IMG/VR virus record: IMGVR_UViG_3300009502_000041
Location: 10,271-74,270 of that record
Direction: 5' to 3' (one strand)
DNA length: 64,000 nt
From: a virus
Under the pieces are notes generated by a model. That model saw nothing but the letters and a program-made list of their open reading frames with translations, was not told the origin of the DNA and ran no database searches. The stretch's first letter is position 1, and every line of letters starts with the position of its first letter. A program made the position numbers and the translations under genes. This document shows, piece after piece, positions 13,575 through 59,942 of the stretch.

Positions 13575-13596
13575 TTTTATATTTTTTAATTTAAAA

Positions 13597-14739: not shown

Positions 14740-14743
14740 TTTT

Positions 14744-16920: not shown

Positions 16921-16921
16921 T

Positions 16922-23580: not shown

Positions 23581-23842
23581 ATTTACAAGGTTTGTTATTG
23601 AATTTTTCAAATCCAATTAAAACTTGACATGATAGGGTAGCTATATTCATTTTATAAATAAAATTCAAATTAAAAATCAAAAGTAGTAATTAAATTATAA
23701 TAAAAAATAATTATTACAAATTATTACCCAATTTTTTTGTTAAAATAATGGTGAGAAAAATTTTTGGGTTTTGGAGCGGTCTATTCCAATGTAAAAATAC
23801 AGTAAATAAAATCAATATGCAAGTATTTATTTAAAAAAATTA

Positions 23843-27445: not shown

Positions 27446-27476
27446 TTGTAAATTACAAATATGTTTTATATATTTG
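27446..27476 (+). promoter_or_regulatory. Bacteroidota-type housekeeping promoter (-33 TTG, -7 TAnnTTTG) at the head of the glycan operon
   Basis: TTG 27446-27448, 20-nt spacer, TATATTTG 27469-27476. Confidence 0.6.
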
Positions 27477-27506
27477 CGGTTGGAATATACTGTAAATATA
27501 TAAACA

Positions 27507-27855
27507 TGAAATACGATGAAATAGTTAAGCAGTTTCAAAGCAATATTTTTGAAACGTTAACAATAACAGAAGTAGCTTTGTTAAAAAATCTAAAGGTGCT
27601 TATTCTAGCGCATTTAAAAATGGTTGGTTTGATGAAGTTTGTTCACATATGATTATAAAACATAAACCAAAAAATTATTGGAATAAGGAAATGTGCACAA
27701 AAGAAGCGTTAAAATATAACGGCAGATACGAATTTCAAAAAAATTCAATGAGTGCTTATCGTTCGGCAATTTTAAATGGCTGGCTAGATGAGGTTTGTTC
27801 GCATATGGTAATTTCTGAAATCTATTTAAAAACACAAAAGAATAATGAAAGATAA
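27507..27855 (+). pseudogene. Remnant of a repeat-type homing endonuclease (two DNA-binding repeats, no nuclease domain)
   Basis: Frame open from 27553: NRSSFVKKSKGAYSSAFKNGWFDEVCSHM then YWNKEMCTKEALKY..SAY..NGWLDEVCSHM, the same repeat as at 49763. Confidence 0.7.
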
Positions 27856-28537
27856 AATAATAGTAGTTTTCTCTTCACATTTAGGAGAAGAATACGATAA
27901 TAAATTCATTAAGCATATTAGTGATACCATTGGAGTTAAGCATACAGCAATTGCTTACCCCAATTACAATCAATTTAGTTTACCTGAAGTCTACAATCTG
28001 GCAATAAAAGAAAATAATGCCAAAAATGTGATATTTGTGTTCTGTCACAATGATCTAACCATACTCAGCCCTAATTGGGGAAGATTATTACTTACAAAAT
28101 TTAATAGCACTAATTATTCGATTATTGGTGTTGCTGGTACTACATACCTTAACGAAAATGGTGTTTGGTGGCACGATAGATCAACAATGCATGGCGTTGT
28201 TGAACATACCGATGGAACAAACACATGGGTTAATGAATACTCAAAACCACGTGCTGGACATATCACTCCCGTTGTTTTAATTGATGGTTTATTTATGGCT
28301 GTTGATTGTAATAACATTGAACATCAATTTGATGAAGATTTTAAAGGCTTCCACCACTACGATACTTCGTTTTGTTTACCTAATGCAATTGCTGGCGTAA
28401 ACATTGGTGTAACCACCGATATAAGAATTTTACACCAATCAGTGGGTATGACAAATGACCAATGGGAATTAAATAGGATACAATTAGTAGAAAAATATAA
28501 AAACGAATTACCAATTTCAATTAATGATTTTAATTAA
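27845..28537 (+). CDS. Glycosyltransferase, GT2-like
   Basis: SLPEVYN, FVFCHND, GVAG, IDGLFMAV, FDEDFKGFHHYD, HQSVG. Confidence 0.85.
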   Translation: MKDKIIVVFSSHLGEEYDNKFIKHISDTIGVKHTAIAYPNYNQFSLPEVYNLAIKENNAKNVIFVFCHNDLTILSPNWGRLLLTKFNSTNYSIIGVAGTTYLNENGVWWHDRSTMHGVVEHTDGTNTWVNEYSKPRAGHITPVVLIDGLFMAVDCNNIEHQFDEDFKGFHHYDTSFCLPNAIAGVNIGVTTDIRILHQSVGMTNDQWELNRIQLVEKYKNELPISINDFN

Positions 28538-28543
28538 AAATTT

Positions 28544-29176
28544 ATGATTAAAGTAGATAAAATAGATGGCGGATTACCAATAAGCATTATTGTACCTCTA
28601 AGTAAAAGCAGAAAAGACTTTTTTGAGCACATGGTATTACCGCTAATTGAAGCAAATGATGTTAATGAAATTATTGTTAATGATGATGAGGGACGTGCAC
28701 CTAAAAAAAGAAATGCAGGATTTAAAAAATCAACTCAGCCATTCATACTGTTTGTAGATGATGATATTCTACTACCAAGTAATTATGCATCAACATTATA
28801 CAAAACTTTAATGAAAAATCCCGATGTTGATTTTGTATATACTGGGTATAATGGCATTGTGTTACATCCCGAATCACACCCAATAGGAAGAAATTTTCAA
28901 ATTCCACCAATTGAATTTAGTATTAACGCTTTAAGACAAGGAAATTATATTTCGACAATGACATTGATGCGCAGAGAAGTATTTCCAATGTTTGACGAAA
29001 ATTTAAAAAGACTACAAGACTGGGACATGTTTTTAACTATCTGTAAAAATGGTGGTAAAGGCATTTTAGTGCCGAATTTAACCTTTTATGCATTCTACCT
29101 TGATTCGGGTATTACTTCTAATGATAATAGTGAAATTGATGCTCTAAATGCAATAAGAATTAAACATCAAATTTAA
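28544..29176 (+). CDS. Glycosyltransferase family 2
   Basis: ISIIVP, RNAG, ILFVDDD, FDENLKRLQDWDMFL. Confidence 0.92.
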   Translation: MIKVDKIDGGLPISIIVPLSKSRKDFFEHMVLPLIEANDVNEIIVNDDEGRAPKKRNAGFKKSTQPFILFVDDDILLPSNYASTLYKTLMKNPDVDFVYTGYNGIVLHPESHPIGRNFQIPPIEFSINALRQGNYISTMTLMRREVFPMFDENLKRLQDWDMFLTICKNGGKGILVPNLTFYAFYLDSGITSNDNSEIDALNAIRIKHQI

Positions 29177-29188
29177 GTATTTATTTTA

Positions 29189-30379
29189 ATGAAGAAACAA
29201 AACATTAAAATTAAAACGATAATAAAAAAAAGAATTGAAAATAATAATATTTTTTTTATTGGGAATAAAAAAATGAATGAAAGAGATTTGAGAAGAATAA
29301 ATGGTGGGAGTAATAATCTTAAATCATTATCTTGTAATGAAAAGCAAAATAATGATTTAAGACAAATAAATTCACCAATAGAACCAGAAAAATTAATATT
29401 AAAAACTGTATCAAAATATAGTTTATTGACCAATAAAACCGCATTTAAATCAGGTTTAACTCTTAAGACCGCACCCAAATCGGTTATTCCTGATAAAGAA
29501 ATGAGTAATTTCATTACATCAGAAGCAACATCCCGTGATGGTAGAAGAAATACAACAAATAACTTATCTATCGACCATTCTACTTCGTTGAGTCGTGACG
29601 AAAGAAGAACAGGATATAATGTTCAAACGTTATTAAATAACAGTATATATCAAATTAAAGCATTTGTTGATTATGATGTTGTGATATGTATCCCTTCTTA
29701 TAATAGATACGAAAAGGTTAAAAGATTGATATCTCAATTTTATTCACAAACAACAAAATATAGATTTAAAATAATATTGTTAAATGATGGATCAACAGAT
29801 AATTCATATAATGATTTAATAAAAGAATTTCCACAAATCACATATTTAAGCAATAAAACCCCAAACGGTAAAACAATGCATTGGTATTGTTATAATCAAA
29901 TGTGGAGTTATTTAAAGAACATTGAATATTATACCGTATTGCAAATGGACGATGATTTCATATTATCAAAAAATTTTTTAAATAATATTCTTGATTTATA
30001 TTTTAAATTAAAACAAGAAAATAATACAATATTAGCAATTTCCCCTCATTTATGGTCGTTTAATAAAAAAAGTAATCATGAAATGTGGTGGGATAAAAAA
30101 GATTTTGTTGATGGAATTGCGTTAATTGATGAATCTGTAATTTCCTCAATGAAATATGAAATGAAAAAAGTTGATGTTGTAATGGTAAGTAAACCGGGCA
30201 TACCCGTTCGTACATGGATACAAATATCCGAAGCAATTGTGAAAATGGGCGGAATTATATATAGAACACAGAATTCATTAGTATATCATGATGGTAATGA
30301 TGATTCAAAGTTACATGGCGATGTTAGAAAAAAGGGCAAAAATGGGGTTTATACACAAAAATATATCGAAAAACTATGA
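29189..30379 (+). CDS. Glycosyltransferase family 2 with a long basic N-terminal extension
   Basis: VVICIPSYNR, LNDGSTD, QMDDDF after ~160 aa of low-complexity sequence; start uncertain. Confidence 0.85.
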   Translation: MKKQNIKIKTIIKKRIENNNIFFIGNKKMNERDLRRINGGSNNLKSLSCNEKQNNDLRQINSPIEPEKLILKTVSKYSLLTNKTAFKSGLTLKTAPKSVIPDKEMSNFITSEATSRDGRRNTTNNLSIDHSTSLSRDERRTGYNVQTLLNNSIYQIKAFVDYDVVICIPSYNRYEKVKRLISQFYSQTTKYRFKIILLNDGSTDNSYNDLIKEFPQITYLSNKTPNGKTMHWYCYNQMWSYLKNIEYYTVLQMDDDFILSKNFLNNILDLYFKLKQENNTILAISPHLWSFNKKSNHEMWWDKKDFVDGIALIDESVISSMKYEMKKVDVVMVSKPGIPVRTWIQISEAIVKMGGIIYRTQNSLVYHDGNDDSKLHGDVRKKGKNGVYTQKYIEKL

Positions 30380-31110
30380 TAAGCGTAATTTTAAATGTTT
30401 ACAAAAGACCTCACATGTTAGAGAAGCAAATTGAGGCAATAAAAAACCAATCGGTTAATGTTAAAAGTGAAAATATACATGTTTGGTATAATAAAACAGA
30501 TGTTGCACAATATTTTCCTTTTGATAAGAAAATTAATACATATGCATGTAATTGGAATACGAAATTTTGGGGTAGGTTTACAGTACCTTTATTAGTTAGA
30601 ACACCTTATGTTGCAATGTTTGATGATGATATTATTCCCCAAAAAGATTGGTTAAAGAATTGTATAAATACAATTCAAAAACCCGAAACAAATGGTATTT
30701 TAGGCGGTAGTGGAGTTTTATTAAAAGCCAAATCGTATACACCTTTTGATAAATTTGGATGGAATGGTAATCATTTAGATAAAACTGAACGTGTTGATTT
30801 AGTTGGACATGCTTGGTTTTTTAAACAAGAATGGATAAAATATCTTTGGTATGAAAAACCATCCACATGGGAAAATGGTGAGGATATAATGTTTTCATTT
30901 CTTGCACAAAAATATGGAAATATAAACACTTTTGTTCCACCACATCCTGAAAATAATAAAGCATTATGGAGTTGTGATTTTAAAATTGGTAATGAGGTGG
31001 GCAATGATAAGAATGCTTCTTGGTTAAAAGGTGCACATTACGGTCAGAGAGACGAAATTGTTAAATATTGCATTAATAATGGATGGAAAACCGTTAATAA
31101 TATCAAATGA
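30376..31110 (+). CDS. Glycosyltransferase family 2
   Basis: ISVILNVYKR, YVAMFDDDIIP, VDLVGHAWF, GEDI. Confidence 0.88.
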   Translation: MISVILNVYKRPHMLEKQIEAIKNQSVNVKSENIHVWYNKTDVAQYFPFDKKINTYACNWNTKFWGRFTVPLLVRTPYVAMFDDDIIPQKDWLKNCINTIQKPETNGILGGSGVLLKAKSYTPFDKFGWNGNHLDKTERVDLVGHAWFFKQEWIKYLWYEKPSTWENGEDIMFSFLAQKYGNINTFVPPHPENNKALWSCDFKIGNEVGNDKNASWLKGAHYGQRDEIVKYCINNGWKTVNNIK

Positions 31111-31811
31111 AAAATCATTCATTTGATATTATTAAATTAATTGAAACCAAAGAAGGGTGTTATTTTTTTAGGATTTTTATGGGCAGATGGTCATATTAAC
31201 AAGAAGTCATCGAGAGTTAGTTTAGATTTGGTTAGAGACGATGCCGATTATTTATATAAACAATGTTTAGTCATATCAAATGATTTTAATATGAAAATGA
31301 AACCCGAATATATTAGAAATGATTCATTGACAGTTAGGCGTAAACCTCAAAATATTATATATTTAACAAATAATAAATTATCATTATTTTTAAAAAATCA
31401 TGATTATATGAATAAAAGTAATGTTAGTGCAGATTCAATATTAGAAATTGTTAAATATAAAAATTTCTGGTTTAGGGGATATTTCGATGGTGATGGATCA
31501 TTATTAATTAGAGAAAGAAATAAAATATTTAATAGTAGTTTACAATTTTCATCAAGTATTGAACAGGATTGGAAATTTTTGTTAAATCTTTAAATTTAAA
31601 AAGCTTTAAAATAATTAGAAGAATTGAAAAATCTGGAAATTCTTCGATGTTTAAATCAGAATCGATTTATGAATCAAAAATATTTTTAGATTATGTTTAT
31701 TCTGATTATTTAAATATTGGCTTACATAGGAAATATTTAATATATTTACAATTAAAAGAAATAACTTTGAAAAGAAAAAGTAAATATGAAAACATTTGCA
31801 GGGGATTTTGA
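31107..31811 (+). pseudogene. LAGLIDADG homing endonuclease with two frameshifts
   Basis: ATGA-coupled start at 31107; FLGFLWADG and FRGYFDGDG motifs; frame breaks in T runs at ~31163-31169 and ~31576-31580; C-terminal LHRKY. Confidence 0.8.
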
Positions 31812-32511
31812 TAAATTTTTAAATAAAATTAAAAATAATAAATCATTTTCGTTATCTCGTTGGGGTGATGGTGAGTTGTCCATTTTAGAAGGTCTTTATA
31901 TTGACATTCGCTCAAAAGGCAATGGTGAATTCAGATACGATCCTAAATTGGATCAATATACTAGTGTTAGAAATAAATTAAATTTGTCTTTCATTGGTAA
32001 GTCTAATGAATATTATATAGGAATTGCATGCCCTTGTTGTGTTGGTGATGACAAATACCAATATATGAAGAAAAAATCAAAACAAGATGAGGAACACTTA
32101 ACTTGGGCAAATATTTTTGTTAATGCTAATTATAGTAAGACAATTAATGACTTAATTCCTGAATTTAAAAATCATACGATTAATCTTGTTGTTAATAAAA
32201 ATTCTAAATTAGATAAATTACCGTTTAAACCTAAAAAAGTTTGGTATGTTGGAACCGATGCTTGGGAGAGTGATTATAAATTAGTCGGTGAGATGATAAA
32301 ACACATAAAAGATAATTCAATAATGAATGAGATATTTTTATTTGCTGCCGGACCGTTGGCAAACATTCTTACGTATGAATTATGGTTTTATGCAAGTAAG
32401 AGTAATACCTATATAGATATTGGTTCGATTTTAGACCCATATTTACAATTAAAATTAACAAGAGGATATCACTTAGGTGCAACTACTTTAAATAAAATTT
32501 GTAGGTGGTAA
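31786..32511 (+). CDS. GT-D fold (DUF1792-like) glycosyltransferase
   Basis: SLSRWGDGE, AAGPLANIL, YIDIGSILD. Confidence 0.7.
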   Translation: MKTFAGDFDKFLNKIKNNKSFSLSRWGDGELSILEGLYIDIRSKGNGEFRYDPKLDQYTSVRNKLNLSFIGKSNEYYIGIACPCCVGDDKYQYMKKKSKQDEEHLTWANIFVNANYSKTINDLIPEFKNHTINLVVNKNSKLDKLPFKPKKVWYVGTDAWESDYKLVGEMIKHIKDNSIMNEIFLFAAGPLANILTYELWFYASKSNTYIDIGSILDPYLQLKLTRGYHLGATTLNKICRW

Positions 32512-32530
32512 TATATTAAATGTTTATAAT

Positions 32531-33181
32531 ATGAATAATATTGTTTTTGCACATAACGTATATAATAGATTAAAAACTTTAAAAGACACTATTTTAGTTG
32601 AGAAAAAATATTTTCCCAATTCAAATATTAGTGTGGCTTGTAATGATGTTTTTATTAATATTTTTTATGATATTACTAATTTTTCTGTTATTCGTTTTAA
32701 TGAACGTGAACATAAAATTGGTTGTGTTAATGGTTGCATATCATCGATAAAACAGTTATTAAACCAAGTGTTTGATGTGCTAATTTTTTCACATGATGAT
32801 GTTAGAATTAATGAACGTTATATTAATATTGTTGAAGAACACATTAACAGTATTATTGAAAACAAATATGATTGTATTTGTCGTAAACCATTAAATGGAT
32901 ATGGGGATGATTATTATCTCATGGAAGTGTTTTATATATCAAAAGAGGCTGCTGTTAAAATATTTTCAAATTTAAATACAATAAATAATGAATCAGAAAT
33001 CCCAACCGATATTAGAGGTTCGATTTCTCCAGAGGTTTTTTTATTTCAAAATATAAATAAATTTAATCTCAAAATTAATGAAATTAAATATGTTCATAAT
33101 GATAATGATTATAATGAAATACTAGGAAAAACAATGGGTTATGAACATTTGAATGCTGGAAATAGAGGTTGGATTGATTAA
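32531..33181 (+). CDS. Hypothetical protein, possible GT-A glycosyltransferase
   Basis: HNVYNR...DVLIFSHDDV DxD-like motif within the glycan cluster. Confidence 0.55.
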   Translation: MNNIVFAHNVYNRLKTLKDTILVEKKYFPNSNISVACNDVFINIFYDITNFSVIRFNEREHKIGCVNGCISSIKQLLNQVFDVLIFSHDDVRINERYINIVEEHINSIIENKYDCICRKPLNGYGDDYYLMEVFYISKEAAVKIFSNLNTINNESEIPTDIRGSISPEVFLFQNINKFNLKINEIKYVHNDNDYNEILGKTMGYEHLNAGNRGWID

Positions 33182-33203
33182 ACAATTAAATATATATATA
33201 GTT

Positions 33204-33827
33204 ATGAATAAAAGAGAAGATTTTGTGTTATCGTATTACGATGGTTTTAATAAATTAACTGGGGTTAGTTTAGAAGATTTTGAGAATTATTATAATGAAG
33301 CCATTTATGGTGGATACCCCGAAGAACCGGGTGGTAGTATCTGGGAAAGTGAGGGTAAATCTATATATGTATTAATACGTATATTAAAACCTAAAAAAAT
33401 ATTGGAAATTGGTAATTTTTTGGGAAGAAGCTCAAATCATATACTACAGGCAGTTGAAAAAAATGGCATGGGCGAAGTTACATTGCTTGATATTGAGGAA
33501 CGTTTACAATACGATAAACTTCACAATAAAAATTTTAATAGAGTTCTGGATGACTCATTAAATCATTTATCATCCCCAATGCAATATGATTTATTTGTAC
33601 AAGATGGAAACCATGCTCGTGAACATGTAACTAAAGAAATTAAGTTGATTTTAGATAATAATTTACCTAGTAATTATTATATTTGGGCACATGATTATTA
33701 TATGAGAACACATCCTGATTGTGGAGTGTGGTTAGCTTGGGATGAAATGAAATCAAAATTTAATGACTTTCAAACATTTCAAGATTCTAAAAGTAATTGT
33801 GGTTGCTCAATAGCAAAAAAAATGTAA
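33204..33827 (+). CDS. Class I SAM-dependent methyltransferase (Methyltransf_24-like, sugar O-methyltransferase candidate)
   Basis: KPKKILEIGNFLGRSS, DLFVQDGNH, HDY; ATG at 33204. Confidence 0.82.
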   Translation: MNKREDFVLSYYDGFNKLTGVSLEDFENYYNEAIYGGYPEEPGGSIWESEGKSIYVLIRILKPKKILEIGNFLGRSSNHILQAVEKNGMGEVTLLDIEERLQYDKLHNKNFNRVLDDSLNHLSSPMQYDLFVQDGNHAREHVTKEIKLILDNNLPSNYYIWAHDYYMRTHPDCGVWLAWDEMKSKFNDFQTFQDSKSNCGCSIAKKM

Positions 33828-33828
33828 A

Positions 33829-34098
33829 ATGTATAATCCTAAAGAATATTGGGAAAATGAATTGGGTGGAGTTGAAAATTGGAAACACGATGCAGATACT
33901 TCACCCAATATTGTTAGGTCAATTGATAGACTTAGAAATGTAGTAATACCAACTATTGTTAATTTAAAACAAGTCAACGGTGGTAATATTTTAGATGCTG
34001 GATGTGGATGCGGATACTGTGCAAATGAATTTAATTTATCAAATTCATTTAATAATGTATATGGCATTGATTTTCAAATAATATACGCCAAAAAATGA
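33829..34098 (+). pseudogene. Truncated class I SAM methyltransferase
   Basis: YNPKEYWE...ILDAGCGCG...VYGID, then a stop after only 89 aa. Confidence 0.65.
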
Positions 34099-35036
34099 CA
34101 AAAATTGCTTTTCATAGTAATCAATTATGTTTGAGAGGTACTGAAGTGGCTTTATATGACTATGCTAAGTATAATGAAGAACTACTTGGAAATAAAAGTA
34201 TTATTATTTCTAAACATCCAGATGTGTGGAAATATTCACATCCATTGGCGATTGAAAAATTTAAGAAAAGATTTCCTGTTTATTTTTATAATGATTTTAA
34301 TGAGGTTGAAAAAATATTGGATAATAATAATGTGGATATTTTTTATGCAATTAAAGCTGGAATAAATGATGGAATTGTTTCGACTAGTAGAAAATCTGTC
34401 AATCATGTCGTATTTCAAAATTATGAGCCACATGGTAATGTATATGCATATGTCTCAGAATGGCTTGGGAGAAGGTATAATTCACCCTTTGTACCACATA
34501 TGATAACGTTACCCGAAGTGAATGATGACTTAAGAAATGACCTGAATATACCCAAAAACGCAATTGTTTATGGTCGTCATGGTGGTGCAGAAACATTTAA
34601 TTTGCCTTTTGTTTATGATGTAATAAAACAAATATTATTAAAAAGAAGTGATATTTATTTTCTTTTTTTATATACAAATAAATTTATTGATCATAAAAAC
34701 GTAATTTATTTGGAAGGCAATAGTGATATGGAATATAAGACAAAATTTATTAATACTTGCGATGCAATGTTACATGCTAGACATCAAGGCGAAAGTTTTG
34801 GATTGTCTGTAGGGGAATTCTCAATTAGAAATAAGCCCGTTATAACATGGACACATGGTAGAGATGGTGCACACATCGAAATGCTGGGTAATAGGGGAAT
34901 TTATTATAATAATGATGTTGAATTATTCAATATTTTAAATAACTTTGTACCTGACCCTACAAAGGATTGGAATGCATTTAAAAATTATAATTCGGAAAGT
35001 GTTATGAAAATATTTAATAATGTTTTTTTAAAATGA
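34095..35036 (+). CDS. Glycosyltransferase GT4-like (GT-B)
   Basis: RGTEVALYDYA; CDAMLHARHQGESFGLSVGEF..KPVIT. Confidence 0.88.
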   Translation: MTKIAFHSNQLCLRGTEVALYDYAKYNEELLGNKSIIISKHPDVWKYSHPLAIEKFKKRFPVYFYNDFNEVEKILDNNNVDIFYAIKAGINDGIVSTSRKSVNHVVFQNYEPHGNVYAYVSEWLGRRYNSPFVPHMITLPEVNDDLRNDLNIPKNAIVYGRHGGAETFNLPFVYDVIKQILLKRSDIYFLFLYTNKFIDHKNVIYLEGNSDMEYKTKFINTCDAMLHARHQGESFGLSVGEFSIRNKPVITWTHGRDGAHIEMLGNRGIYYNNDVELFNILNNFVPDPTKDWNAFKNYNSESVMKIFNNVFLK

Positions 35037-35785
35037 AAATAGCGACCCATTTATTGTTTTTTAACCAAGACAATTTCATATTAAAAAATATTGAAATGAT
35101 TGCGCCGTTTGTAGATAAAATATATGTCACTTGGAGCGAATTTCCTTGGTTATACAATTTACAGGCAAGAGATTTGTTTAAAAACAAATCAAACCCCGAA
35201 CTTCTAAAACAATCGCCATATTACGATAAAATTGAATTAATTATAGGTGAATGGAATCTTGATGAAGACCAAAGAAACGCATGTCTTGATGCCGCAAAGC
35301 GTGATGAAATGGATTATCTGTTAATAATAGATGCTGATGAGTTTTATACTCACGAAGATTTAAAAAAACTAATAACCGATATAGCAAACAATCCTGATTA
35401 TGAATATTATACTACACCTTGGTTTACATATTGGAAAGATTATAATCATGTTATAGTTAACAAAAACGGTAATTATATTAATGGCTTTCCAGAAGTTTGT
35501 GTTAATTTAAAGTATAATAACAGATTTATTAGATGCAGAAGACCATCAGGCACAAGAATTAAAAAATTGACCTCATTATGTGGGCATGCATCATATGTAT
35601 TAAACAATGAGGAGTGTTGGAGTAAAATTAATACTTGGGGTCACGCCCATCAATTTAATAGAAATCAGTGGTATATGGATAAATGGATTAATTGGAATGA
35701 AAACACAATAAATTTACATCCAATTGACCCAAGCGCATGGTATAGAACAATTAAAACACCTGAAGAATTAAAATTAAATATATGA
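35033..35785 (+). CDS. Glycosyltransferase, GT2-like
   Basis: QRNACL..DYLLIIDADEFY. Confidence 0.8.
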   Translation: MKIATHLLFFNQDNFILKNIEMIAPFVDKIYVTWSEFPWLYNLQARDLFKNKSNPELLKQSPYYDKIELIIGEWNLDEDQRNACLDAAKRDEMDYLLIIDADEFYTHEDLKKLITDIANNPDYEYYTTPWFTYWKDYNHVIVNKNGNYINGFPEVCVNLKYNNRFIRCRRPSGTRIKKLTSLCGHASYVLNNEECWSKINTWGHAHQFNRNQWYMDKWINWNENTINLHPIDPSAWYRTIKTPEELKLNI

Positions 35786-36795
35786 TACTTATTGCCTACG
35801 GGACCCGTCCAGAAATACTTAAAATACAGTCGGTTATAAATGTTTTTGATGAGAATAATGTTCAATGCGTAACATTATTTACTGGTCAACACGCTAATTT
35901 AATTGGTAGACATAATCCAAACTATATAATTGATATTGTTGATATACCTTATGTTAGTAGACTCGATTGTATTGTTAAATCAATAATGGGTTTATTTACA
36001 ACAATAGGTCTCCACCCAGTTAAAACAGATTATGTTTTGGTTCAGGGCGATACTACCACAGCACTTGCTGTTGCTTTAACGGCATTTCATAATGGTATAA
36101 AGGTTATTCATTTAGAAGCTGGATTGCGAACATACGATAATAATAATCCATATCCAGAAGAGGTAAATAGAAAAATGATATCACAAATTGCTGATATTCA
36201 TTTATGTCCAACAGAACACGCAAGATTAAATCTTGTTAGTGAAAACATAACAAAAAATGTATTTGTTGTTGGCAATACGGTAATTGATAATTTATTACCG
36301 TATAAAAGTATGTGTGAATATACAAACAAAATATTGGTTACAATGCATAGACGTGAGAATCATCACTGGTTGGATAAATGGTTTATTGAAATCAACGAAT
36401 TGGCTAAGGATCATCCCGAATATGAATTTATATTACCGATACATCCGAACCCAAATGTGATGAGGTATAAGCATTTATTAACGAACGTAAATGTTATTGA
36501 CCCATTATCATACGATGCAATGCTGAGTTTATTGGTTAAAACAAGACTTGTTATTACTGACAGTGGTGGATTGCAAGAAGAAAGTAGTTTCTTTAATAAA
36601 AAATGTTTAACTTGCAGAATTGTTACAGAAAGACCCGAAGCAATAGGACAGAGCACATTTATGGTTGAAAGTCCATCAGTATTGAAAAAAATATTTGACG
36701 AACATATTGATAATTATGAAATTAATTATGTTTCACCGTTTGGTGACGGACACTCTGCAGAAAAAATACTAAAAATATTAAAGAATATTATATGA
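35782..36795 (+). CDS. wecB: UDP-N-acetylglucosamine 2-epimerase (non-hydrolysing)
   Basis: GTRPE, TGQH, VQGDT, HLEAGLRT, PEEVNR, GNTVID, HRREN, TDSGGLQEE, TERPE, PFGDG. Confidence 0.96.
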   Translation: MILIAYGTRPEILKIQSVINVFDENNVQCVTLFTGQHANLIGRHNPNYIIDIVDIPYVSRLDCIVKSIMGLFTTIGLHPVKTDYVLVQGDTTTALAVALTAFHNGIKVIHLEAGLRTYDNNNPYPEEVNRKMISQIADIHLCPTEHARLNLVSENITKNVFVVGNTVIDNLLPYKSMCEYTNKILVTMHRRENHHWLDKWFIEINELAKDHPEYEFILPIHPNPNVMRYKHLLTNVNVIDPLSYDAMLSLLVKTRLVITDSGGLQEESSFFNKKCLTCRIVTERPEAIGQSTFMVESPSVLKKIFDEHIDNYEINYVSPFGDGHSAEKILKILKNII

Positions 36796-37553
36796 GGAAA
36801 GTACTAGTAATTGGCGATAGCTGTCAGGACATATTTAATTATGGGGTTTGTAATAGATTGTGTCCTGAAGCACCTGTACCTGTTTTTAACCCAACTAAGA
36901 TGATAATAAACGGGGGAATGTCAATCAATGTATTTGAAAATCTTAAATCATTAAAAATTGATTGCGACATTGTAACCAATGATCACAGACCAATAAAAAC
37001 AAGATATGTTGATGAGGTTTCAAACCAAATGTTATTAAGGGTGGACGAAAAGGATGTCGTTAAAAGAATTGAGGAAAAAAGATTAAAATCAATTGACTTT
37101 AGTAAATATTATGCAATTGTAATTAGCGACTATAATAAGGGATTTTTAGATGAAGAAGATATATATAGTATCACCAATTCACATTCATTAACTTTTTTGG
37201 ATACAAAAAAAGAAATTAAAACGTGGGCAATGAACACCAATTTTATTAAAATTAATGAAAATGAATATAATCGAAATTTATTTTATTTTAAAAATCACCA
37301 TACTAAAGACTTAATAGTAACATTAGGCAAGAATGGTGCAATGTTAAATAGAGAAGAAATATTTCCAATTACTGGTAATCATGATATTAAAGATTTGTGT
37401 GGTGCTGGTGATACTTTTTTTGCAGGACTTGTTGCGGATTTCATAAATAATAACGATATTCGCAGTGCAATAGTATTTGCAAATAAATGTGCATCATGGG
37501 CTGTTACACAAAAAGGAGTTTCTGTTATGAATTTAATAAATGAAATAAAATGA
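36792..37553 (+). CDS. hldA: D-glycero-D-manno-heptose-7-phosphate kinase (HldE/RfaE kinase domain, PfkB family)
   Basis: VLVIGD..D...RLCPEAPVPV, KTR, LLRVD, SDYNKG, VTLGKNGA, GAGDTF. Confidence 0.85.
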   Translation: MRKVLVIGDSCQDIFNYGVCNRLCPEAPVPVFNPTKMIINGGMSINVFENLKSLKIDCDIVTNDHRPIKTRYVDEVSNQMLLRVDEKDVVKRIEEKRLKSIDFSKYYAIVISDYNKGFLDEEDIYSITNSHSLTFLDTKKEIKTWAMNTNFIKINENEYNRNLFYFKNHHTKDLIVTLGKNGAMLNREEIFPITGNHDIKDLCGAGDTFFAGLVADFINNNDIRSAIVFANKCASWAVTQKGVSVMNLINEIK

Positions 37554-37840
37554 ATATTTTTGTAGATATCGACAATACCGTTTGTTTAACCAGAGATAGT
37601 GATTACGAGAATTCCGAACCGATTTTCGAAAACATTGCTAAGATTAATAAATTATTTAACGAAGGAAATAATATTGTCTACTATTCGGCAAGGGGAAGGA
37701 GATCAGGGGTCGATTGGACAGAGTTTACAATAAAGCAGTTGCGGGAGTGGAATTGTAAATATAACGACTTGTTTATGAATCATAAACCCGATTATGATTT
37801 GTATATTTGTGACAAAACCAAGAGAATTGAAGAAATTTAA
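37550..37840 (+). CDS. Small HAD phosphatase (capsule-biosynthesis-phosphatase-like)
   Basis: VDIDNTVC, YSARG, KPDYDLYICDK. Confidence 0.75.
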   Translation: MNIFVDIDNTVCLTRDSDYENSEPIFENIAKINKLFNEGNNIVYYSARGRRSGVDWTEFTIKQLREWNCKYNDLFMNHKPDYDLYICDKTKRIEEI

Positions 37841-37850
37841 ATAATTATCA

Positions 37851-38387
37851 TTGAAAAAGATTTACAATTTTACAACAGATAAGAAAGAAATTTTAGAAGT
37901 ATTAGACGTGAGACGAAAATTCGTTAACTACTTTTTTATGTGTTTTCATCCTTGGAGCAAAAAGAAAGCAAAAATTGTTTTCACTAATGGTTGTTTTGAT
38001 TTAATTCATTCTCAACATGTAAATCTTTTAAATAAATCCAAAGAACTTGGATTTTATTTAGTTGTTGGGGTAAATTCAGACAAATCGGTTAAATTGCTTA
38101 AGGGAGAAGATAGACCTATTTTTAATGAAGACGATAGAGCATTTATTCTCTCAAGTTTAGAGGCGGTTGATTGCGTGATAATTTTTGATGATTATTCGGT
38201 GTTAGATTTGATTAAATTCATTAAGCCAGACATTATAACCAAGGGTGATGATTATCAAATAAACCAATTAAATAATGTTGGTGGTGAATTTGTTAAAGAA
38301 TATGGAGGTAAATTAGAAATTATTCCCACAAAAAAGGGAATGGCAACTAGTGATATTATTAATAAAATTATAAAAATTTACAAATGA
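37851..38387 (+). CDS. hldC: Heptose-1-phosphate adenylyltransferase (HldE/RfaE domain II)
   Basis: VFTNGCFDLIHSQH, VVGVNSDKSV..LKG..RP, KPDIITKGDDY, GMATSDII. Confidence 0.88.
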   Translation: MKKIYNFTTDKKEILEVLDVRRKFVNYFFMCFHPWSKKKAKIVFTNGCFDLIHSQHVNLLNKSKELGFYLVVGVNSDKSVKLLKGEDRPIFNEDDRAFILSSLEAVDCVIIFDDYSVLDLIKFIKPDIITKGDDYQINQLNNVGGEFVKEYGGKLEIIPTKKGMATSDIINKIIKIYK

Positions 38388-39019
38388 AAATTGGAAACAT
38401 TATTTATGAAAAAGAATTGGTTAATCATGTTAAAGTAGATTTTGTTAATTATTATAACGAAGCCATTGAATATGATAAACTCGATAAGACTTTACCTACA
38501 TTATGTGTTGGTTGGTCGTTTATGAAGAGTTGTAATGTTGATAATGAAATAATTCAAAACGCAGACATTCTAAAGAAGAAAATAATTGCAAATGAGTTAT
38601 ATTGGGAATGTAGTTTTGAGGAAAGCAAATCGTCTCACATTAAAGGAGTTGGAAGTTTTATAAACCTAATTCCTCAACTTTATTTTCCACCAAAATATCA
38701 ATACATAAATTTAGACCCAGTGTTTTTTCAATTAAAAGATATTGAGGATTTAATGGATGTGATTCCAAAGCACTTTGATGTTTTATATAGGTTTAAAGAC
38801 GAAATGCTTTATATATTATTTCAAAATAAAATATCTGGCATAAATTTAAAAACATATGAATTTTATAAATTTGATATTGAGAATTTATGTAATAGAATTT
38901 CCGAGAGAGCAAATACAATTCACATTGATTTGGATGGTAAAATTCATGAAGATTATTATAAAATTTTACCCAATTTTACCCAACTTAAAAGATATCTAAT
39001 CACATTGTTGACAAAATGA
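38384..39019 (+). CDS. Hypothetical protein
   Basis: ATGA-coupled ORF; LPTLCVGW motif, no family assigned. Confidence 0.75.
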   Translation: MKIGNIIYEKELVNHVKVDFVNYYNEAIEYDKLDKTLPTLCVGWSFMKSCNVDNEIIQNADILKKKIIANELYWECSFEESKSSHIKGVGSFINLIPQLYFPPKYQYINLDPVFFQLKDIEDLMDVIPKHFDVLYRFKDEMLYILFQNKISGINLKTYEFYKFDIENLCNRISERANTIHIDLDGKIHEDYYKILPNFTQLKRYLITLLTK

Positions 39020-40381: not shown

Positions 40382-40828
40382 ATGAAAGTATTTCATTCAC
40401 ATGGTACAAAAGAAAGACTCTTCGAAATGATGAAAAGGGTTAGTAATCTTAATGAACAATTATTGCCGTTTCAAAAAAAAGATGAAATTTTAAATAATTT
40501 TGTTGAGTTTGCAATAAAAAAACTTGATTTGGAAAATGATTCACCAAATGTGGTGGTATCTCATAAAGATAATGATGCTGAAGAAATGAAATCTTTTGGG
40601 AAATTTTTCCCCGACACTAACGAAATTAAGGTTGTTGGAACAAACAGAAATTTAGCTGATGTGTTAAGAACGATTGCACATGAAATAGTGCATTACAAAC
40701 AAAATAAAGAGGGTAAATTAAATCAAAACTCAGGTGAGACAGGAAGTGCCGAAGAAAATGAAGCAAACGCACTTGCTGGTGTTCTTATGAGGGAATTTGG
40801 TAAAATGCATCCAGAAATATTCGAATAA
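40382..40828 (+). CDS. Zincin-type metallopeptidase-like protein (HExxH)
   Basis: LRTIAHEIVHYKQ...ENEANALAG. Confidence 0.75.
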   Translation: MKVFHSHGTKERLFEMMKRVSNLNEQLLPFQKKDEILNNFVEFAIKKLDLENDSPNVVVSHKDNDAEEMKSFGKFFPDTNEIKVVGTNRNLADVLRTIAHEIVHYKQNKEGKLNQNSGETGSAEENEANALAGVLMREFGKMHPEIFE

Positions 40829-42898: not shown

Positions 42899-42924
42899 AA
42901 AGACTGTTAATAGCAGTCTTTTTA
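42899..42924 (+). terminator. Intrinsic terminator
   Basis: AAAGACTGTT-AAT-AGCAGTCTTTTT. Confidence 0.8.
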
Positions 42925-42955: not shown

Positions 42956-45900
42956 ATGTCAACATTTCGAAACTATTTTTTAAAGAATAATACTTTAATA
43001 GATAATAATCTAACAAATTCTTCACAGAATCCAGTGTGTGAAATCTCATACGGGACTTATAATAAGCAAGTTAGCAGATTTATTTTTGATGTTGATTTAA
43101 GTAATTTACAAGATAAAATTGCAAATGGTTTTATTAACCCAAATAGAATTGTTAAACATGTATTGCATATGACCAATACAATTAGTGGTGCAGAACAATA
43201 TGTTGGCAAAAAATCGTATTCGTTAAGTATTGATAGAGCAACTAGTTTTAATTTAGAAGTTTTTAATGTTAATGAGGATTGGGATGAAGGGGGTGGTTAT
43301 GATTTTATTTATAATGATAGCCAATTATTGGATTCTACGGTATATCCACAAGCATCAAATTGGTTTAGCAGAAAAACCGCAGATACATGGTTAACGGCTG
43401 GAGCATATTTTAGTGGTAATACTGAAATAATTGGAACACAAAGATTCGAAACTGGTGGTGAGAATCTTGAAATAGATGTTACTGATTATATTAATCGAAG
43501 ATTATTATATGGTAATATTTATACTGGCACTACTAATTATACAGGTACTACTAACTATACTGGTGAAACTACGGGAACTACTGGTTATACAGGAACTACT
43601 GGTTATACAGGAACTACTGGTTATACAGCCACGACATTTGGATTAGGTATTAAGTTCACAGATGTTTATGAACAACTCGATCCTGAATTTAGACAAGCAG
43701 TTGCGTTTTATACAAAACATACAAATACTTTTTATGAACCATACGTAGAGACAATTATTGATGATACAATCACTGACGATAGAAATTATTTTTATTTGGA
43801 TAAAGATAATGATTTATATTTATATGCAAATGCAGGACAGTCACAACAAAATGTTATTGTAAATCAAGTTAATATATATGATAATGAAGATATGTTACTT
43901 GGTAGTTTATCAGGTAACTCAATAGTTAATGTAAGTAAAGGTGTTTATAAAATAACGTTAAACATTGATTCACAATCATATCCAGATGCCGTTATTTTTA
44001 GGGATGAGTGGATTATAACTATTAATAATAAAGAGATCACACATAACGGTGAATTTTATTTAATATCTCAGGATAAATATTTTACCTTTAATCAATCAAA
44101 CCAAATTGATTTTAATAACTATTTTTTCTATTTCTGGGGAATTGGGGAAAAGGAAAATATTAGAGCAGGTGCGGTTAAAAAAATTAAATTAACAATAAAA
44201 GAATTGTATTCAAACCAAGATAGTTTTTTACCATTAGAAATTGAATATCGTTTATTCACAACAGTTGGAAAAAAATACGAAATTGATATAATTCCGTTTA
44301 CTCTTACAAATAGAACTAATACTGGATATGAGTTTAGTCTTGATACTTCGTGGTTAATTCCCCAAGACTATTATTTACAAATTAGAATGAAAAATGGTGA
44401 TTATTATGAAAATAAGCAAACACTATCGTTTACAATTGTAAGTGACGGTATTTTTGGCAATTTATCACATAAAATAACCACAACAAAAGCACCTAAAACA
44501 ACCACCAGTACATCAACAAGTACTAGCACCAGTACCAGTACATCAACAAGCACTAGTACTAGCACCAGTACCAGTACATCTACAAGCACCAGTACATCTA
44601 CAAGTACTAGTACATCTACCAGTACAAGTACCACAACTAGTACAAGCACCACAACTAGTACATCTACTAGTACAAGCACCACAACTAGTAGTACAACCAC
44701 GATAGCGCCAATACTTAATCCATTAACATTGTCTTTTGACAGTATTTTAAACGCTAATTTATTAATTGGTGGGAATTCATCGGATGTTAATGTGTGGAAT
44801 ACATTTTTTGATTTACCCACTAACGGTAATTCGTTTGTAATTGCAACGGTAAGTGGAAATAGTGTAACTTTGCTTGGGGGAAACAATATTCATTTAAGAG
44901 ATTCATTATTCTATGTAAATACTGTTCAAGGTAATACAACTTTAGTATCGATTGTTGATAGTTCATGTATTATTTCATCAGGAAATCAAGGTTTTATGTG
45001 TTGTGTTTCATTAACCACAATAAGTTTACCTTTATTAATTTCGGATAATGGACATTTTCTTTATGGGTGTACTTCCTTAACAACCGTTGATTTACCAAAA
45101 CTGACCAATTCGGGAATATTTGGTTTTGGGTTTTGCACTTCATTAACATCAATTAATTTACCAAGTTTAATTACAACAGGAGATTATTGTTTTTATAATA
45201 GTACTGGTTTATATACTGTTAATTTACCATTTTGTGTTAATTTGGGTAGTACCACTGGAAATGACTATGTATTTGGCGGAATTAGTGGAAGAGCTATTAC
45301 ACTTTCCGTTCCTCCAGCACTAATGACGTGTAATAATGGAAATCCAGATGGAGATATACAAGATTTCCTGTTTAATAATAATTCATCAATAATTTCCCCA
45401 GTAATATCTTTAAGTTTTAATAATATTACAAATGCCGATTTATTAATTGGAGGGAGTTCGTTAGATGTTAATGTTTGGAATACATTTTTTGATTTACCAA
45501 ATAATGGAAATCCTTTTATTTCTGTGAGTGTTAGTGGAAACACTGTTGAATTATTTGGAGGAGAAGGTATTTTTCTTAAAGATTCATTATTTGATGATGC
45601 TGGAAGATATGGAACGAATTTATTATCTTTTATAGATTATGGAAGTATTATGAGCACTGGTTATGATTGTTTTGGGGCTGATAATAATGGGGGATGTCCT
45701 AATTTAATCACAGTGGTTCTACCAAGTGTTGCAACACTTGGTAATTATTGTTTTTTGGGGTGTTTTTCCTTAACAACCGTTGATTTACCAAGTTTGATTG
45801 TCGCAGGTCAAGGGAGTTTCCAACAATGTTCAAGTTTAATATCTATTAATTTTCCAAGTTTAATTAATATTAAAGACTATTGTTTTTATGGTTGTACATC

Positions 45901-47140
45901 ATTAATAAATATCAATATACCTGCTTGTATAAATTTAGGAACAACAACAGGAAATAACAATGTATTTTCAAACATTAACTCAAATATCATCACATTAACA
46001 GTTCCTTCTACATTGATGTCTTGTGATGGAGGTTTACCTGATGGAGATATAGTTATATTACAAGGAAATAACACAGTAACCGTCTTAACTAATGCGTTAC
46101 AAATATCTATGACGTTTGTGAACACAAGGAGTTTAACTTTTTTTATTGGCAATGATCCTAGTGATATCAATGCGTGGAATACTAAATTTAATCTACCTAC
46201 AAACGGTAATATATTTACTTCTGTTATTGTAAGAGGAAATTCTGTTATATTATTAGGTGGAAGTAATATTCATTTGAAAGACAACTTATTTAATCTTACT
46301 CTTGGTAGTAATGATAATGGCTTAGTGTCTTTTATTGATGGTGGATGTATTATAAGTGCAGGAAACAATGTGTTTGGAAATCAAAATCAACAAAAAGCCA
46401 ATAGTAGTTTAACTACAATTAATCTTTCTGCTTTAACTACTGCTGGAAATGATTGTTTTTCTAATTGTTTTATGAATTACTTTAATGCACCATTATTGGA
46501 AACAATTGGTAATTCATGTTTCTATTACTGTTATTATTTGACTTCACTTAGTCTTCCTAGTCTAATAACCGCAGGGAATGAATCGTTTGCTTTGCTGAAC
46601 TCATTAACAAATCTTGACTTACCTAAATTAACAACTGCTGGAACTTCCTGTATTTCTTCTTGTTCTAGTTTGACTTCACTTAGTCTTCCTAGTCTAATAA
46701 CCGCTGGGTATCGTTGTTTATATAACAATACTAATTTAACCTCTTATGATTTACCAAAATTAACAAGTGCTGGCAGTGAATGTTTTAGTGGTTGTGTAGC
46801 ATTAGTAAATGCTAATTTTCCAAGTTTAACTACTGCTGGAAATACTTGTTTTTCTTATTGTACAGGACTAGTAAATATTAATTTACCAAGTTTAACTATT
46901 ATTAGGGATAATTCTTTTACTGAATGCAGTTCATTAATATCAATTAATTTACCAATTTGTACAAATTTGGGATCAACTATTGGTAACAATGGTGTATTTG
47001 ATGGAATAATAGGAAATACAATAACATTAACCATACCTTCAGCATTAATGACTTGTAATGATGGTATAACCACTTTTGATCCTGATGGAGATATTCAATA
47101 TTTACAGGCAAATAATACGGTAAATGTGATAACCGTTTAA
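42956..47140 (+). CDS. Large virion-surface protein: conserved N-terminal domain, Thr/Ser linker, three BspA-type leucine-rich-repeat modules
   Basis: CTSLTTVDLPKLT..G..CF repeats (LRR_5/BspA-like) in three modules starting ~44723, ~45404 and ~46103; late motif upstream. Confidence 0.8.
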   Translation: MSTFRNYFLKNNTLIDNNLTNSSQNPVCEISYGTYNKQVSRFIFDVDLSNLQDKIANGFINPNRIVKHVLHMTNTISGAEQYVGKKSYSLSIDRATSFNLEVFNVNEDWDEGGGYDFIYNDSQLLDSTVYPQASNWFSRKTADTWLTAGAYFSGNTEIIGTQRFETGGENLEIDVTDYINRRLLYGNIYTGTTNYTGTTNYTGETTGTTGYTGTTGYTGTTGYTATTFGLGIKFTDVYEQLDPEFRQAVAFYTKHTNTFYEPYVETIIDDTITDDRNYFYLDKDNDLYLYANAGQSQQNVIVNQVNIYDNEDMLLGSLSGNSIVNVSKGVYKITLNIDSQSYPDAVIFRDEWIITINNKEITHNGEFYLISQDKYFTFNQSNQIDFNNYFFYFWGIGEKENIRAGAVKKIKLTIKELYSNQDSFLPLEIEYRLFTTVGKKYEIDIIPFTLTNRTNTGYEFSLDTSWLIPQDYYLQIRMKNGDYYENKQTLSFTIVSDGIFGNLSHKITTTKAPKTTTSTSTSTSTSTSTSTSTSTSTSTSTSTSTSTSTSTSTSTSTSTTTSTSTTTSTSTSTSTTTSSTTTIAPILNPLTLSFDSILNANLLIGGNSSDVNVWNTFFDLPTNGNSFVIATVSGNSVTLLGGNNIHLRDSLFYVNTVQGNTTLVSIVDSSCIISSGNQGFMCCVSLTTISLPLLISDNGHFLYGCTSLTTVDLPKLTNSGIFGFGFCTSLTSINLPSLITTGDYCFYNSTGLYTVNLPFCVNLGSTTGNDYVFGGISGRAITLSVPPALMTCNNGNPDGDIQDFLFNNNSSIISPVISLSFNNITNADLLIGGSSLDVNVWNTFFDLPNNGNPFISVSVSGNTVELFGGEGIFLKDSLFDDAGRYGTNLLSFIDYGSIMSTGYDCFGADNNGGCPNLITVVLPSVATLGNYCFLGCFSLTTVDLPSLIVAGQGSFQQCSSLISINFPSLINIKDYCFYGCTSLININIPACINLGTTTGNNNVFSNINSNIITLTVPSTLMSCDGGLPDGDIVILQGNNTVTVLTNALQISMTFVNTRSLTFFIGNDPSDINAWNTKFNLPTNGNIFTSVIVRGNSVILLGGSNIHLKDNLFNLTLGSNDNGLVSFIDGGCIISAGNNVFGNQNQQKANSSLTTINLSALTTAGNDCFSNCFMNYFNAPLLETIGNSCFYYCYYLTSLSLPSLITAGNESFALLNSLTNLDLPKLTTAGTSCISSCSSLTSLSLPSLITAGYRCLYNNTNLTSYDLPKLTSAGSECFSGCVALVNANFPSLTTAGNTCFSYCTGLVNINLPSLTIIRDNSFTECSSLISINLPICTNLGSTIGNNGVFDGIIGNTITLTIPSALMTCNDGITTFDPDGDIQYLQANNTVNVITV
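43520..43636 (+). repeat. 18-bp coding tandem repeat (YTGTTN/YTGTTG)
   Basis: ACAGGAACTACTGGTTAT-type units, about six copies. Confidence 0.9.
44498..44701 (+). repeat. Thr/Ser low-complexity coding repeat (~68 codons of T/S)
   Basis: TTTSTSTSTS...TTTSSTTT encoded with mixed codons. Confidence 0.92.
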
Positions 47141-47181: not shown

Positions 47182-47212
47182 TTGTATTTATAATAAATGA
47201 AGGCTATATTTG
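47182..47212 (+). promoter_or_regulatory. Bacteroidota-type promoter, overlapping a GTATTTAT motif, upstream of SSB
   Basis: TTG 47182-47184, 20-nt spacer, TATATTTG 47205-47212. Confidence 0.65.
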
Positions 47213-57089: not shown

Positions 57090-57102
57090 AAAATAAATAG
57101 AA

Positions 57103-59913: not shown

Positions 59914-59942
59914 TTTTAATATAATAAAAATTTAAATAAAAC

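Follow-up and report, generated by a model that had tools for sequence, protein, structure and literature searches.

To our knowledge, glycosylation of virions by phage-encoded enzymes is known only from mycobacteriophages, in which the systems are small, and complex, clade-specific glycan toolboxes are known only from giant amoebal viruses. In the Megavirinae (Mimivirus, Moumouvirus, Megavirus), fibril-glycosylation clusters comprise 6-33 genes, with bacteria-like sugars and clade-specific content (PMC10117803). In mycobacteriophages of the Che8 type, O-glycosylation is described at the C-terminal ends of the capsid and tail-tube subunits (Freeman et al. 2023, as cited in PMC12619734), and such systems are described with two putative transferases (PMC11256854). 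A 2025 paper presents the 'Moraphages', freshwater Bacteroidota jumbo phages with genomes of up to 307 kb, four core groups of glycosyltransferases (GTs) and predicted Flavobacteriia hosts, and leaves the role of these transferases open between DNA, serotype conversion and virion (PMC12619734). Here we describe a 10.5-kb glycan locus (positions 27845-38387) on the IMG/VR viral contig IMGVR_UViG_3300009502_000041. The window analysed is a 64-kb stretch of this 74-kb contig (completeness estimate 23%, G+C about 30%); coordinates refer to it unless another contig is named, and genes are called by their first position. The best reading of the locus is, in our view, that its glycan chain would go onto the phage's own tail or virion proteins, a proposal that stands evenly balanced between right and wrong on the sequence evidence set out below.

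Among the products of the window are a T4-type tail sheath of 942 aa, a gp19-like tube protein, a hub protein of the T4 baseplate, UvsX, an exonuclease and a helicase of DnaB type. Compared with 50,697 GenBank phages, the sheath found distant relatives only (at most 36-40% identity, over partial length), and the glycan locus gave zero nucleotide matches to GenBank phages by megablast. A complete relative (G001) of 321,624 bp, which has terminal repeats, shares its gene order with the window for nearly all genes, thus the window derives from a jumbo T4-like phage; genome sizes among the relatives are 266-366 kb. The presence of sheath, tube, gp23 capsid and T4 baseplate identifies a T4-like tailed phage and not a giant eukaryotic virus with glycosylated fibrils. 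The source is predicted to be an uncultured jumbo T4-like phage of Bacteroidota, and the type of -7 promoter box described below fits such a host.

A reading of this DNA made earlier from the letters alone (the sequence-only reading) had proposed a tightly coupled gene row, and this is borne out: the genes from 27845 to 38387 are co-directional on the plus strand, mostly overlapping, with gaps of 1-30 nt or overlaps of 4 nt. None of the encoded proteins has a transmembrane segment (criterion: a 19-residue hydrophobic stretch above 1.41). By its gene order and family matches, this block of soluble sugar-activating and sugar-joining enzymes is a real gene cluster.

The first gene (27845..28537, PF13712, 4e-26) encodes a GT-A glycosyltransferase. 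Its predicted structure (pLDDT 92) has as top solved match Majastridin (2nxv, TM 0.70), whose function is unknown; polypeptide GalNAc-transferases and other proteins rank after it, and a profile of the protein run against PDB sequences reached Majastridin alone. The nearest structural relatives are proteins from uncultured phages. No homologue was found in the 50,697 GenBank phage records (tblastn, E 1e-3), a search made with this transferase alone among those of the locus. We infer, purely, its role: it is a candidate for the first, protein-directed transferase that would initiate the chain. Three GT2 enzymes follow: 28544..29176 (PF00535, 3.7e-7; relatives 62-75% identical), 29189..30379 (PF00535, 6e-11 over residues 166-271) and 30376..31110 (PF00535, 1.5e-7), the most conserved, with relatives 73-76% identical. 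The protein of 29189 carries a low-complexity N-terminal extension of about 100-160 aa, and relatives align to it only past residue ~100. A further GT2-like enzyme of the GT-A fold lies at 35033..35785 (PF00535, 2.9e-6, 27.8 bits against a cut-off of 23.3). Six or seven transferases of three folds had been proposed; these five GT-A assignments all exceed the Pfam cut-off, whereas profile assignment of the two other folds is weaker. The GT-D enzyme (31786..32511) is weak on its own sequence (PF08759/PF22882 at 20.9 bits, below cut-off; TIGR03728 at 4.5e-7), but it has 228 homologues, and PF08759 or PF22882 is found in the majority of those listed (120); the SP_1767 family model matches as well. 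The putative GT-B enzyme of GT1/GT4-like type (34095..35036) matches PF00534 at 0.0065, below cut-off, and its environmental homologues number 2,822, of which one bears the name GT family 1 and one the domain PF00534. Comparison with PHROGs was uninformative for the transferases and for the flanking large proteins, and PDB sequence searches with 23843, 40841, 34095 and 32531 gave no match.

The remaining genes would tailor the sugars or supply them. The O-methyltransferases of the sequence-only reading reduce to one intact SAM-dependent methyltransferase (33153..33827, PF13578/Methyltransf_24, 5.9e-9); the second gene (33829..34098) encodes an 89-aa fragment with motif I only (weak PF13847/PF13489, residues 48-83), and is probably a methyltransferase remnant. 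A gene of a relative (L003) analogous to 33153 also matches rhamnosyl O-methyltransferase/CmcI; 33153 would act in sugar O-methylation. The product of 35782..36795, in agreement with the earlier call, is a bona fide WecB, the non-hydrolysing UDP-GlcNAc 2-epimerase (PF02350, 8.8e-75; TIGR00236 at 242 bits, above the equivalog cut-off of 210.15); a UDP-ManNAc donor is well supported. Three genes then resemble the last steps towards ADP-heptose: a PfkB-family sugar kinase (36792..37553) nearest to the heptose-7-phosphate kinase domain of HldE (TIGR02198, 3.5e-30; 105 bits against a cut-off of 345), a 96-aa HAD-type phosphatase (37550..37840) with an N-terminal DxDxT that resembles the EcbF/BcbF capsule phosphatase (TIGR01689, 6.5e-7) and not GmhB, and a heptose-1-phosphate adenylyltransferase of HldE domain II type (37851..38387, TIGR02199, 5.8e-51; 172 bits against a cut-off of 181.5). 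The heptose-activating enzymes proposed earlier are thus recovered as HldE-type best matches, but both scores stay below the equivalog cut-offs. An ADP-heptose donor made by this trio is plausible from these matches; the route would need a host GmhA, or else the trio would produce another sugar nucleotide. GT9 heptosyltransferases (PF01075, of the LPS or TibC/Aah type) gave no match among the locus proteins at E 0.01. One gene of the row, 32531..33181, encodes a protein present in this phage only among the relatives compared, without family assignment (zero matches in Pfam, NCBIfam, PHROG and PDB).

The row is interrupted by what, from alignment with the relatives, are two degenerate homing-endonuclease insertions. 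At 27461..27855 (plus strand), two small open reading frames (ORFs; 27461-27652 and 27649-27855) separate the promoter from the first transferase gene by about 370 nt, where the relatives hold just 55-70 nt; the second ORF matches a homing-endonuclease DNA-binding repeat, and similar repeats stand beside endonuclease-like DNA in two other contigs (L024, L002). At 31141..31811 (plus strand), a frameshifted LAGLIDADG homing-endonuclease remnant (ORFs 31141-31593 and 31569-31811, weak PF14528) is missing in relatives, in which the flanking transferase genes adjoin. Beyond the adenylyltransferase gene, and overlapping it by 4 nt, a conserved protein without assignment (38384..39019, plus strand) is translationally coupled to the locus. 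It is 45-65% identical in six relatives; its fold model is too poor for use (pLDDT 49), and a protein atlas gave weak leads to sugar transferases.

Seven related contigs share a common frame made of the baseplate genes, the glycan locus and genes 38384, 39058, 39255, 40382 and 40841. Within this frame, a core consisting of the first four GT-A enzymes, the GT-D enzyme and WecB is present in most of the seven, and the core transferases are 55-76% identical between phages, compared with 40-52% for the adjoining large structural proteins. The centre varies. The stretch 32531-35785 is unique to this phage, and the heptose genes are patchy (the 36792 kinase has homologues in L003, L004 and L023 only). 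In the same slot, one relative has a GT25 enzyme, a rhamnosyl-O-methyltransferase-like enzyme, a GT10-like enzyme and two dehydratase/epimerases; another has a GDP-mannose 4,6-dehydratase; another a DegT aminotransferase, a GNAT enzyme, a methyltransferase and a sulfotransferase; and yet another extra GT2 enzymes together with GT-B/GT2 fusion proteins. In more distant contigs, the 27845 type, the 30376 type, the GT-D enzyme and WecB stay together. By this comparison the locus belongs to the core of the whole lineage, its own core being conserved and its centre variable in the manner of an O-antigen locus; because a conserved core is combined with a phage-specific part, O-antigen-like behaviour with strain-specific glycans would be expected. 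As a separate observation, L003:10001-11302, L139, L141, L142 and L144 encode fusions of the 27845-type domain with a second GT2 domain (434-512 aa), whereas the two are separate adjacent genes in this phage.

A 27845-type enzyme was found in 10 of the 11 large sheath-bearing records of the lineage and in all seven complete genomes, G001 included. The sequence-only reading had looked to co-occurrence of the cluster with motif-rich structural proteins as support; with the transferase in all complete records, the lineage offers no transferase-free member for contrast.

Which molecule would receive this glycan? The sequence-only reading pointed to acceptor-like motifs in the structural genes, and these hold up well. 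The motif [S/T]-G-x-[S/T] occurs 67 times in five late proteins of the window, three times the 22 expected from shuffling within 25-residue blocks. These five proteins show no enrichment of permuted patterns or of patterns that have Ala or Asn instead of Gly, and a plain compositional origin is ruled out by the block shuffles and permuted motifs. The first candidate acceptor is the tail sheath (1451..4279, plus strand), with 9 sites against 2.5 expected (z 4.6), eight of the nine at residues 147-557; in an orthologue 71% identical, seven sites are conserved by column, with gains and losses, swaps between S and T, and a variable x. The second is the 1394-aa BspA-type leucine-rich-repeat (LRR) protein (42956..47140, plus strand; PF13306, 2e-43), with 13 sites against 5.7 (z 3.4), of which nine fall within a single (T-G-x)n tract at residues 190-224. 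The others are three late fibre- or decoration-like proteins together spanning 55935..63998 (plus strand): 55935 (7 sites against 1.9, z 4.0), 57103 (16 against 4.4, z 5.8) and 59943 (22 against 7.8, z 5.4). In PHROG, 57103 matches families of virion structural, tail fibre and head decoration proteins. Among the five, 57103 and 59943 form the one paralogous pair; the others are unrelated by BLAST. As a side observation on 42956, the protein has four BspA-type LRR stretches, its (T-G-x)n tract is proline-free and collagen-like, and its G001 orthologue is only 471 aa long.

In 29 non-structural proteins the motif occurs 7 times against 5.4 expected, and the capsid protein, with two sites only, is not enriched and is not an acceptor candidate. 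The G001 orthologues of the late proteins are enriched too, up to 29 sites against 5.7, and the faster-evolving proteins keep the excess while their sites turn over. Motif density in G001 is 0.51 per 100 aa in proteins encoded directly behind late promoters, compared with 0.19 elsewhere. Moreover, about 70 of 77 sheath orthologues (38-89% identity) show the excess, and in more distant contigs that encode this transferase, fibre-like proteins rich in the motif lie within 10 kb of it. Outside the lineage, the structural proteins of T4 (24 sites against 20.9, zero in gp18) and of Microcystis phage Mel-JY01 (20 against 16.7) are not enriched, and a control Flavobacterium myophage is only mildly above expectation (56 against 38.6).

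The locus appears to carry its own promoter. Between the baseplate gene and the first transferase gene, all eight related phages aligned have CTTG, a spacer of about 19 nt and TAnnTTTG; in this phage (27445..27476, plus strand) the spacer is 20 nt and is followed by TATATTTG. Promoters of Flavobacterium and Bacteroides have TAnnTTTG as their -7 box (PMC7641319), and the element is annotated as a promoter of the Bacteroidota sigma-A type. The box also precedes the 27845-type gene in most of 10 more distant relatives, and GTATTTAT stands there in none of the ten. GTATTTAT is enriched in the window (23 observed against 10.7 expected), lies 12-70 nt upstream of the sheath, tube and baseplate genes and of 39058, 42956, 47261 and 55935 (fibre-type), and has plus-strand copies at 1378, 4756, 5165, 17816, 20786, 23823, 39030, 42933, 47184 and 55890; because it precedes these late genes, it is likely the late promoter of the lineage. 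The T4 late promoter TATAAATA was tried as the late signal and rejected, as it is not enriched (30 against 21 expected).

The copy of GTATTTAT ahead of the baseplate genes (23823..23830, plus strand) is a candidate source of read-through into the locus. No plus-strand terminator was found between 23843 and 42874, and the first convincing plus-strand intrinsic terminator past the locus is a 10-bp stem followed by a T-run at 42899..42921; the locus could thus be read both from its own host-type promoter and by read-through of the late baseplate genes. A further copy of GTATTTAT lies within the locus at 29177-29184, 5 nt ahead of the annotated start of 29189, and this gene may in truth start farther along the annotated frame, in which case 29177-29184 would be an internal late promoter. 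Elsewhere in the window, intergenic candidates of the form TTG-N17-21-TAnnTTTG occur at 47182-47212 (plus), 52204-52233 (plus) and 8121-8092 (minus), and gene 47261 is preceded by both a host-type candidate and the late motif.

From these elements a route can be drawn in which the glycan would be built on virion proteins. WecB would turn UDP-GlcNAc into UDP-ManNAc, and the kinase, phosphatase and adenylyltransferase would carry out the last three steps to ADP-heptose from host heptose-7-phosphate. The methyltransferase and seven soluble transferases (of GT-A type in five cases, GT-D in one and probably GT-B in one) would then build a methylated hetero-oligosaccharide straight onto a soluble acceptor, within the cytoplasm and without lipid carrier, flippase or polymerase. 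The acceptor would be Ser/Thr of exposed [S/T]-G-x-[S/T] sites in the outer domains of the sheath and in fibre- or adhesin-like late proteins, and the glycan would be added while the tail is being assembled or earlier. Initiation would fall to the universal 27845-type enzyme, the variable genes would render the chain strain-specific, and transcription would start from the host-type promoter, probably complemented by read-through from the late baseplate operon. More specifically, and only tentatively, since we think this fuller version somewhat more apt to fail than to hold, the lineage may have its own sequon-directed O-glycosylation, in which a new small GT-A family reads [S/T]-G-x-[S/T] on sheath outer domains and fibres and the other enzymes extend a strain-specific methylated ManNAc/heptose chain, a particle 'O-antigen'.

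Several points weigh against glycosylation of the virion. The glycan on virion proteins is a prediction from sequence, and the GT-A folds do not tell which acceptor is used; the top solved match is a protein of unknown function. The promoter is conserved and of host type, so that the locus is not simply a late structural operon; this suggests expression independent of the late genes, which would fit DNA or host targets equally well. Co-occurrence does not discriminate, since every sufficiently complete member of the lineage has the transferase. One record (G013, corresponding to L116, 210 kb) has a 27845-type transferase, yet its 804-aa sheath bears a single motif site; the G013 transferase is a two-domain fusion. 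The motif was chosen by eye before it was tested, and its excess could be a structural habit of the fibre and sheath domains of this lineage. The heptose assignment is incomplete, as no SIS_2 match for GmhA was found in five genomes. Finally, lying among structural genes counts for little, as the same region also holds PhoH, nucleases, homing endonucleases and a further GT2 enzyme. The earlier preference for virion glycosylation over serotype conversion is therefore kept in part: the motif is real and the rival explanations lack their defining parts, but the promoter, the co-occurrence pattern and the G013 sheath count on the other side.

Remodelling of the host envelope is the rival that survives best, and we consider it unlikely. 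The enzymes would act at the inner membrane face on undecaprenyl-phosphate-linked or lipid A-core intermediates of the host, relying on the host for priming, flipping and ligation, and would alter LPS, capsule or O-glycan for superinfection exclusion or to keep progeny off debris. Envelope-glycan systems do typically contain such parts as WecB/ManNAc, ADP-heptose, the LPS family GT25 and a GT10-like fucosyltransferase, the nearest PHROG transferase families, including GtrB-like ones, are filed under moron/host takeover, the host-type promoter permits early expression, and the variable gene content could track host glycan types. However, the parts that would tie the locus to a lipid carrier are missing. 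Priming transferases (Bac_transf, Glycos_transf_4) were found neither in the contig itself, nor in three partial relatives, nor in the complete G001, in a search whose controls matched in 10-12 of 14 genomes; the same holds for a Wzx flippase (Polysacc_synt, PF01943) in the contig, the partial relatives and G001, the polymerase/ligase family not having been searched. The claim that flippase and lipid-carrier transferase are absent thus stands and extends to G001, with the polymerase outside the search. Besides, all locus enzymes are devoid of membrane segments, and, unlike accessory conversion genes, the first transferase is universal in the lineage and the core transferases are more conserved than the adjoining structural proteins. 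Envelope remodelling would also leave the motif excess in virion proteins unexplained.

Hypermodification of the phage DNA would place the sugars on a hydroxylated base of the genome and so block restriction and CRISPR, as in the T-even phages and the glycan biosynthetic gene clusters (BGCs) of Pyle et al.; we regard this as quite improbable here. Phage GT-A and GT-B enzymes add hexose, HexNAc or heptose, up to trisaccharides, onto 5-hydroxymethylcytosine (5hmC) or 5-hydroxycytosine (5hoC), and clusters that make such mono- to trisaccharides on 5hmC occur beside structural genes (bioRxiv 10.1101/2023.12.21.572611). The core-gene status of the locus and its host-type promoter would fit a DNA function, and a thymidylate-synthase homologue is encoded on the same contig. 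This route requires a thymidylate-synthase variant, or a methylase together with a Tet-type dioxygenase (bioRxiv 10.1101/2023.12.21.572611; PMC13326640). The homologue (407 aa, L034:524-1747, minus strand) lies just before the window and has three insertions relative to the solved enzymes. Published residue rules mark hydroxymethylases, 5-hydroxycytosine synthases and dCMP-specific enzymes by L143D/E, N177D or D169N (Lee et al., PMC13326640), but Leu143, Asp169 and Asn177 are kept in all nine homologues, from the contig itself and eight relatives. By these rules they are ordinary dTMP synthases, and a dCMP/dUMP hydroxymethylase was rejected on these canonical residues, in line with the earlier statement that the window holds no hydroxymethylase-type gene. 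The versions of the relatives are 278-395 aa long, and two have Ala for His147. On the alternative branch, no C5-methylase (PF00145) was found in four complete relatives (G001, G005, G007, G010) and no Tet/JBP protein (PF12851) in seven complete relatives, the latter in a search without positive control. Moreover, at least seven transferases joined by methyl-, sulfo-, amino- and acetyl-transferases go far beyond any known DNA glycan. The last alternative, another soluble acceptor (a non-virion phage or host protein, a small molecule or a lipid, with a purpose unrelated to the particle surface), has in our judgement only a slim chance: enzyme sequences do not fix the acceptor and two locus genes are of unknown function, but no candidate acceptor or carrier gene is recognised in the locus (32531 and 38384 being without assignment), and the motif excess in late proteins would stay unexplained.

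The surroundings of the locus match only half of the earlier description, which had baseplate genes on one side of it and head genes on the other. The upstream side holds a T4_baseplate protein (17849), a pair of large late proteins (20813 and 23843) and a 104-aa protein (27125) with weak baseplate-wedge matches. Downstream of 38384, instead of head genes, there are late genes without assignment, a small HExxH protein, a 677-aa protein and the 1394-aa BspA-LRR protein, and then replication genes. The HExxH protein (40382-40828, 148 aa), with weak Peptidase_M78/IrrE matches, is a late protein 52-63% conserved in all relatives. G001 has fibre-like genes at 30-40 kb, replication genes at 44-49 kb, the glycan locus at 55-65 kb, baseplate genes at 66-73 kb, a non-structural block with PhoH-type neighbours at 73-81 kb, tube and sheath at 82-85 kb and the capsid gene at ~100 kb, that is, about 35 kb from the glycan locus and on its baseplate/sheath side. 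In the window, the non-structural block between the tube and baseplate genes (7296-17692, minus strand) encodes PhoH, a PD-(D/E)XK-like protein, several proteins without assignment and a GT2 enzyme outside the cluster (12750..13619, minus strand; PF00535, 1.2e-5; 65% identical in G001). This block is fully kept in G001.

Beyond the sequence-only reading, the analysis adds the position of the locus shared by seven contigs, its core/variable layout, the universal first transferase, the promoter of its own and the specificity of the motif excess. If the glycan does go onto the virion, abundant freshwater jumbo phages would coat their tails with self-made, variable glycans, and a serotype-like surface layer on the particles could have effects on adsorption, on aggregation, on grazing and on how host defences recognise them; a further gain would be a new family of protein glycosyltransferases with a short sequon. 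If the target is instead DNA or the host envelope, the locus would be the most elaborate such phage system described. The conserved core, the variable centre and the candidate acceptors offer a direct route to testing in a heterologous host.

The locus can be set beside several known systems. A GT-D (DUF1792) enzyme also takes part in Fap1 serine-rich-repeat glycosylation; here the GT-D match itself is below cut-off and most of the listed homologues carry the family domains, and a GtfA/GtfB pair, accessory Sec and a serine-rich-repeat substrate are absent from the Pfam matches of the locus, no dedicated search having been made. With bacterial O-antigen and capsule loci and the ADP-heptose pathway (GmhA, HldE, GmhB), it shares conserved flanks, a variable centre, WecB and the HldE-type kinase and adenylyltransferase domains, but priming transferase, flippase, GmhA and GT9 were not found, and the phosphatase is a 96-aa HAD protein of EcbF/BcbF type and not GmhB. 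The clusters for sugar hypermodification of DNA have GT-A and GT-B enzymes related to those of LPS and teichoic acid, may use heptose or HexNAc, and lie near structural genes (bioRxiv 10.1101/2023.12.21.572611; PMC13326640); they differ in that the acceptor-base enzymes were searched here and not found, and that the tailoring enzymes of this locus are far more numerous and varied. The Moraphages, compared by description only, may be the same or a sister lineage, and their description does not cover the locus, its variable part, the promoter or the motif (PMC12619734).

The mycobacteriophage systems, as described, likewise use phage-encoded soluble glycosyltransferases, acting there on the phage's own structural proteins; in contrast, the present locus has at least seven transferases with sugar-nucleotide enzymes, and the sites proposed for it, [S/T]-G-x-[S/T] motifs of sheath and fibres, are internal, with no enrichment in the capsid. 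A further difference is that the first transferase of the locus found no homologue among the 50,697 GenBank phages. With the fibril clusters of the Megavirinae it shares nucleotide-sugar pathways combined with soluble transferases, clade-specific content and independence from lipid-carrier export machinery (PMC10117803). Those clusters belong to giant viruses of amoebae whose fibril glycans were shown chemically, whereas here the virus is a tailed phage with a putative target, and no homology of the enzymes is claimed. Since virus type, enzymes and candidate sites all differ, the locus is a member of neither system. All together, the comparison suggests that it works most like the Megavirinae fibril-glycosylation clusters, while also resembling virion glycosylation in mycobacteriophages.

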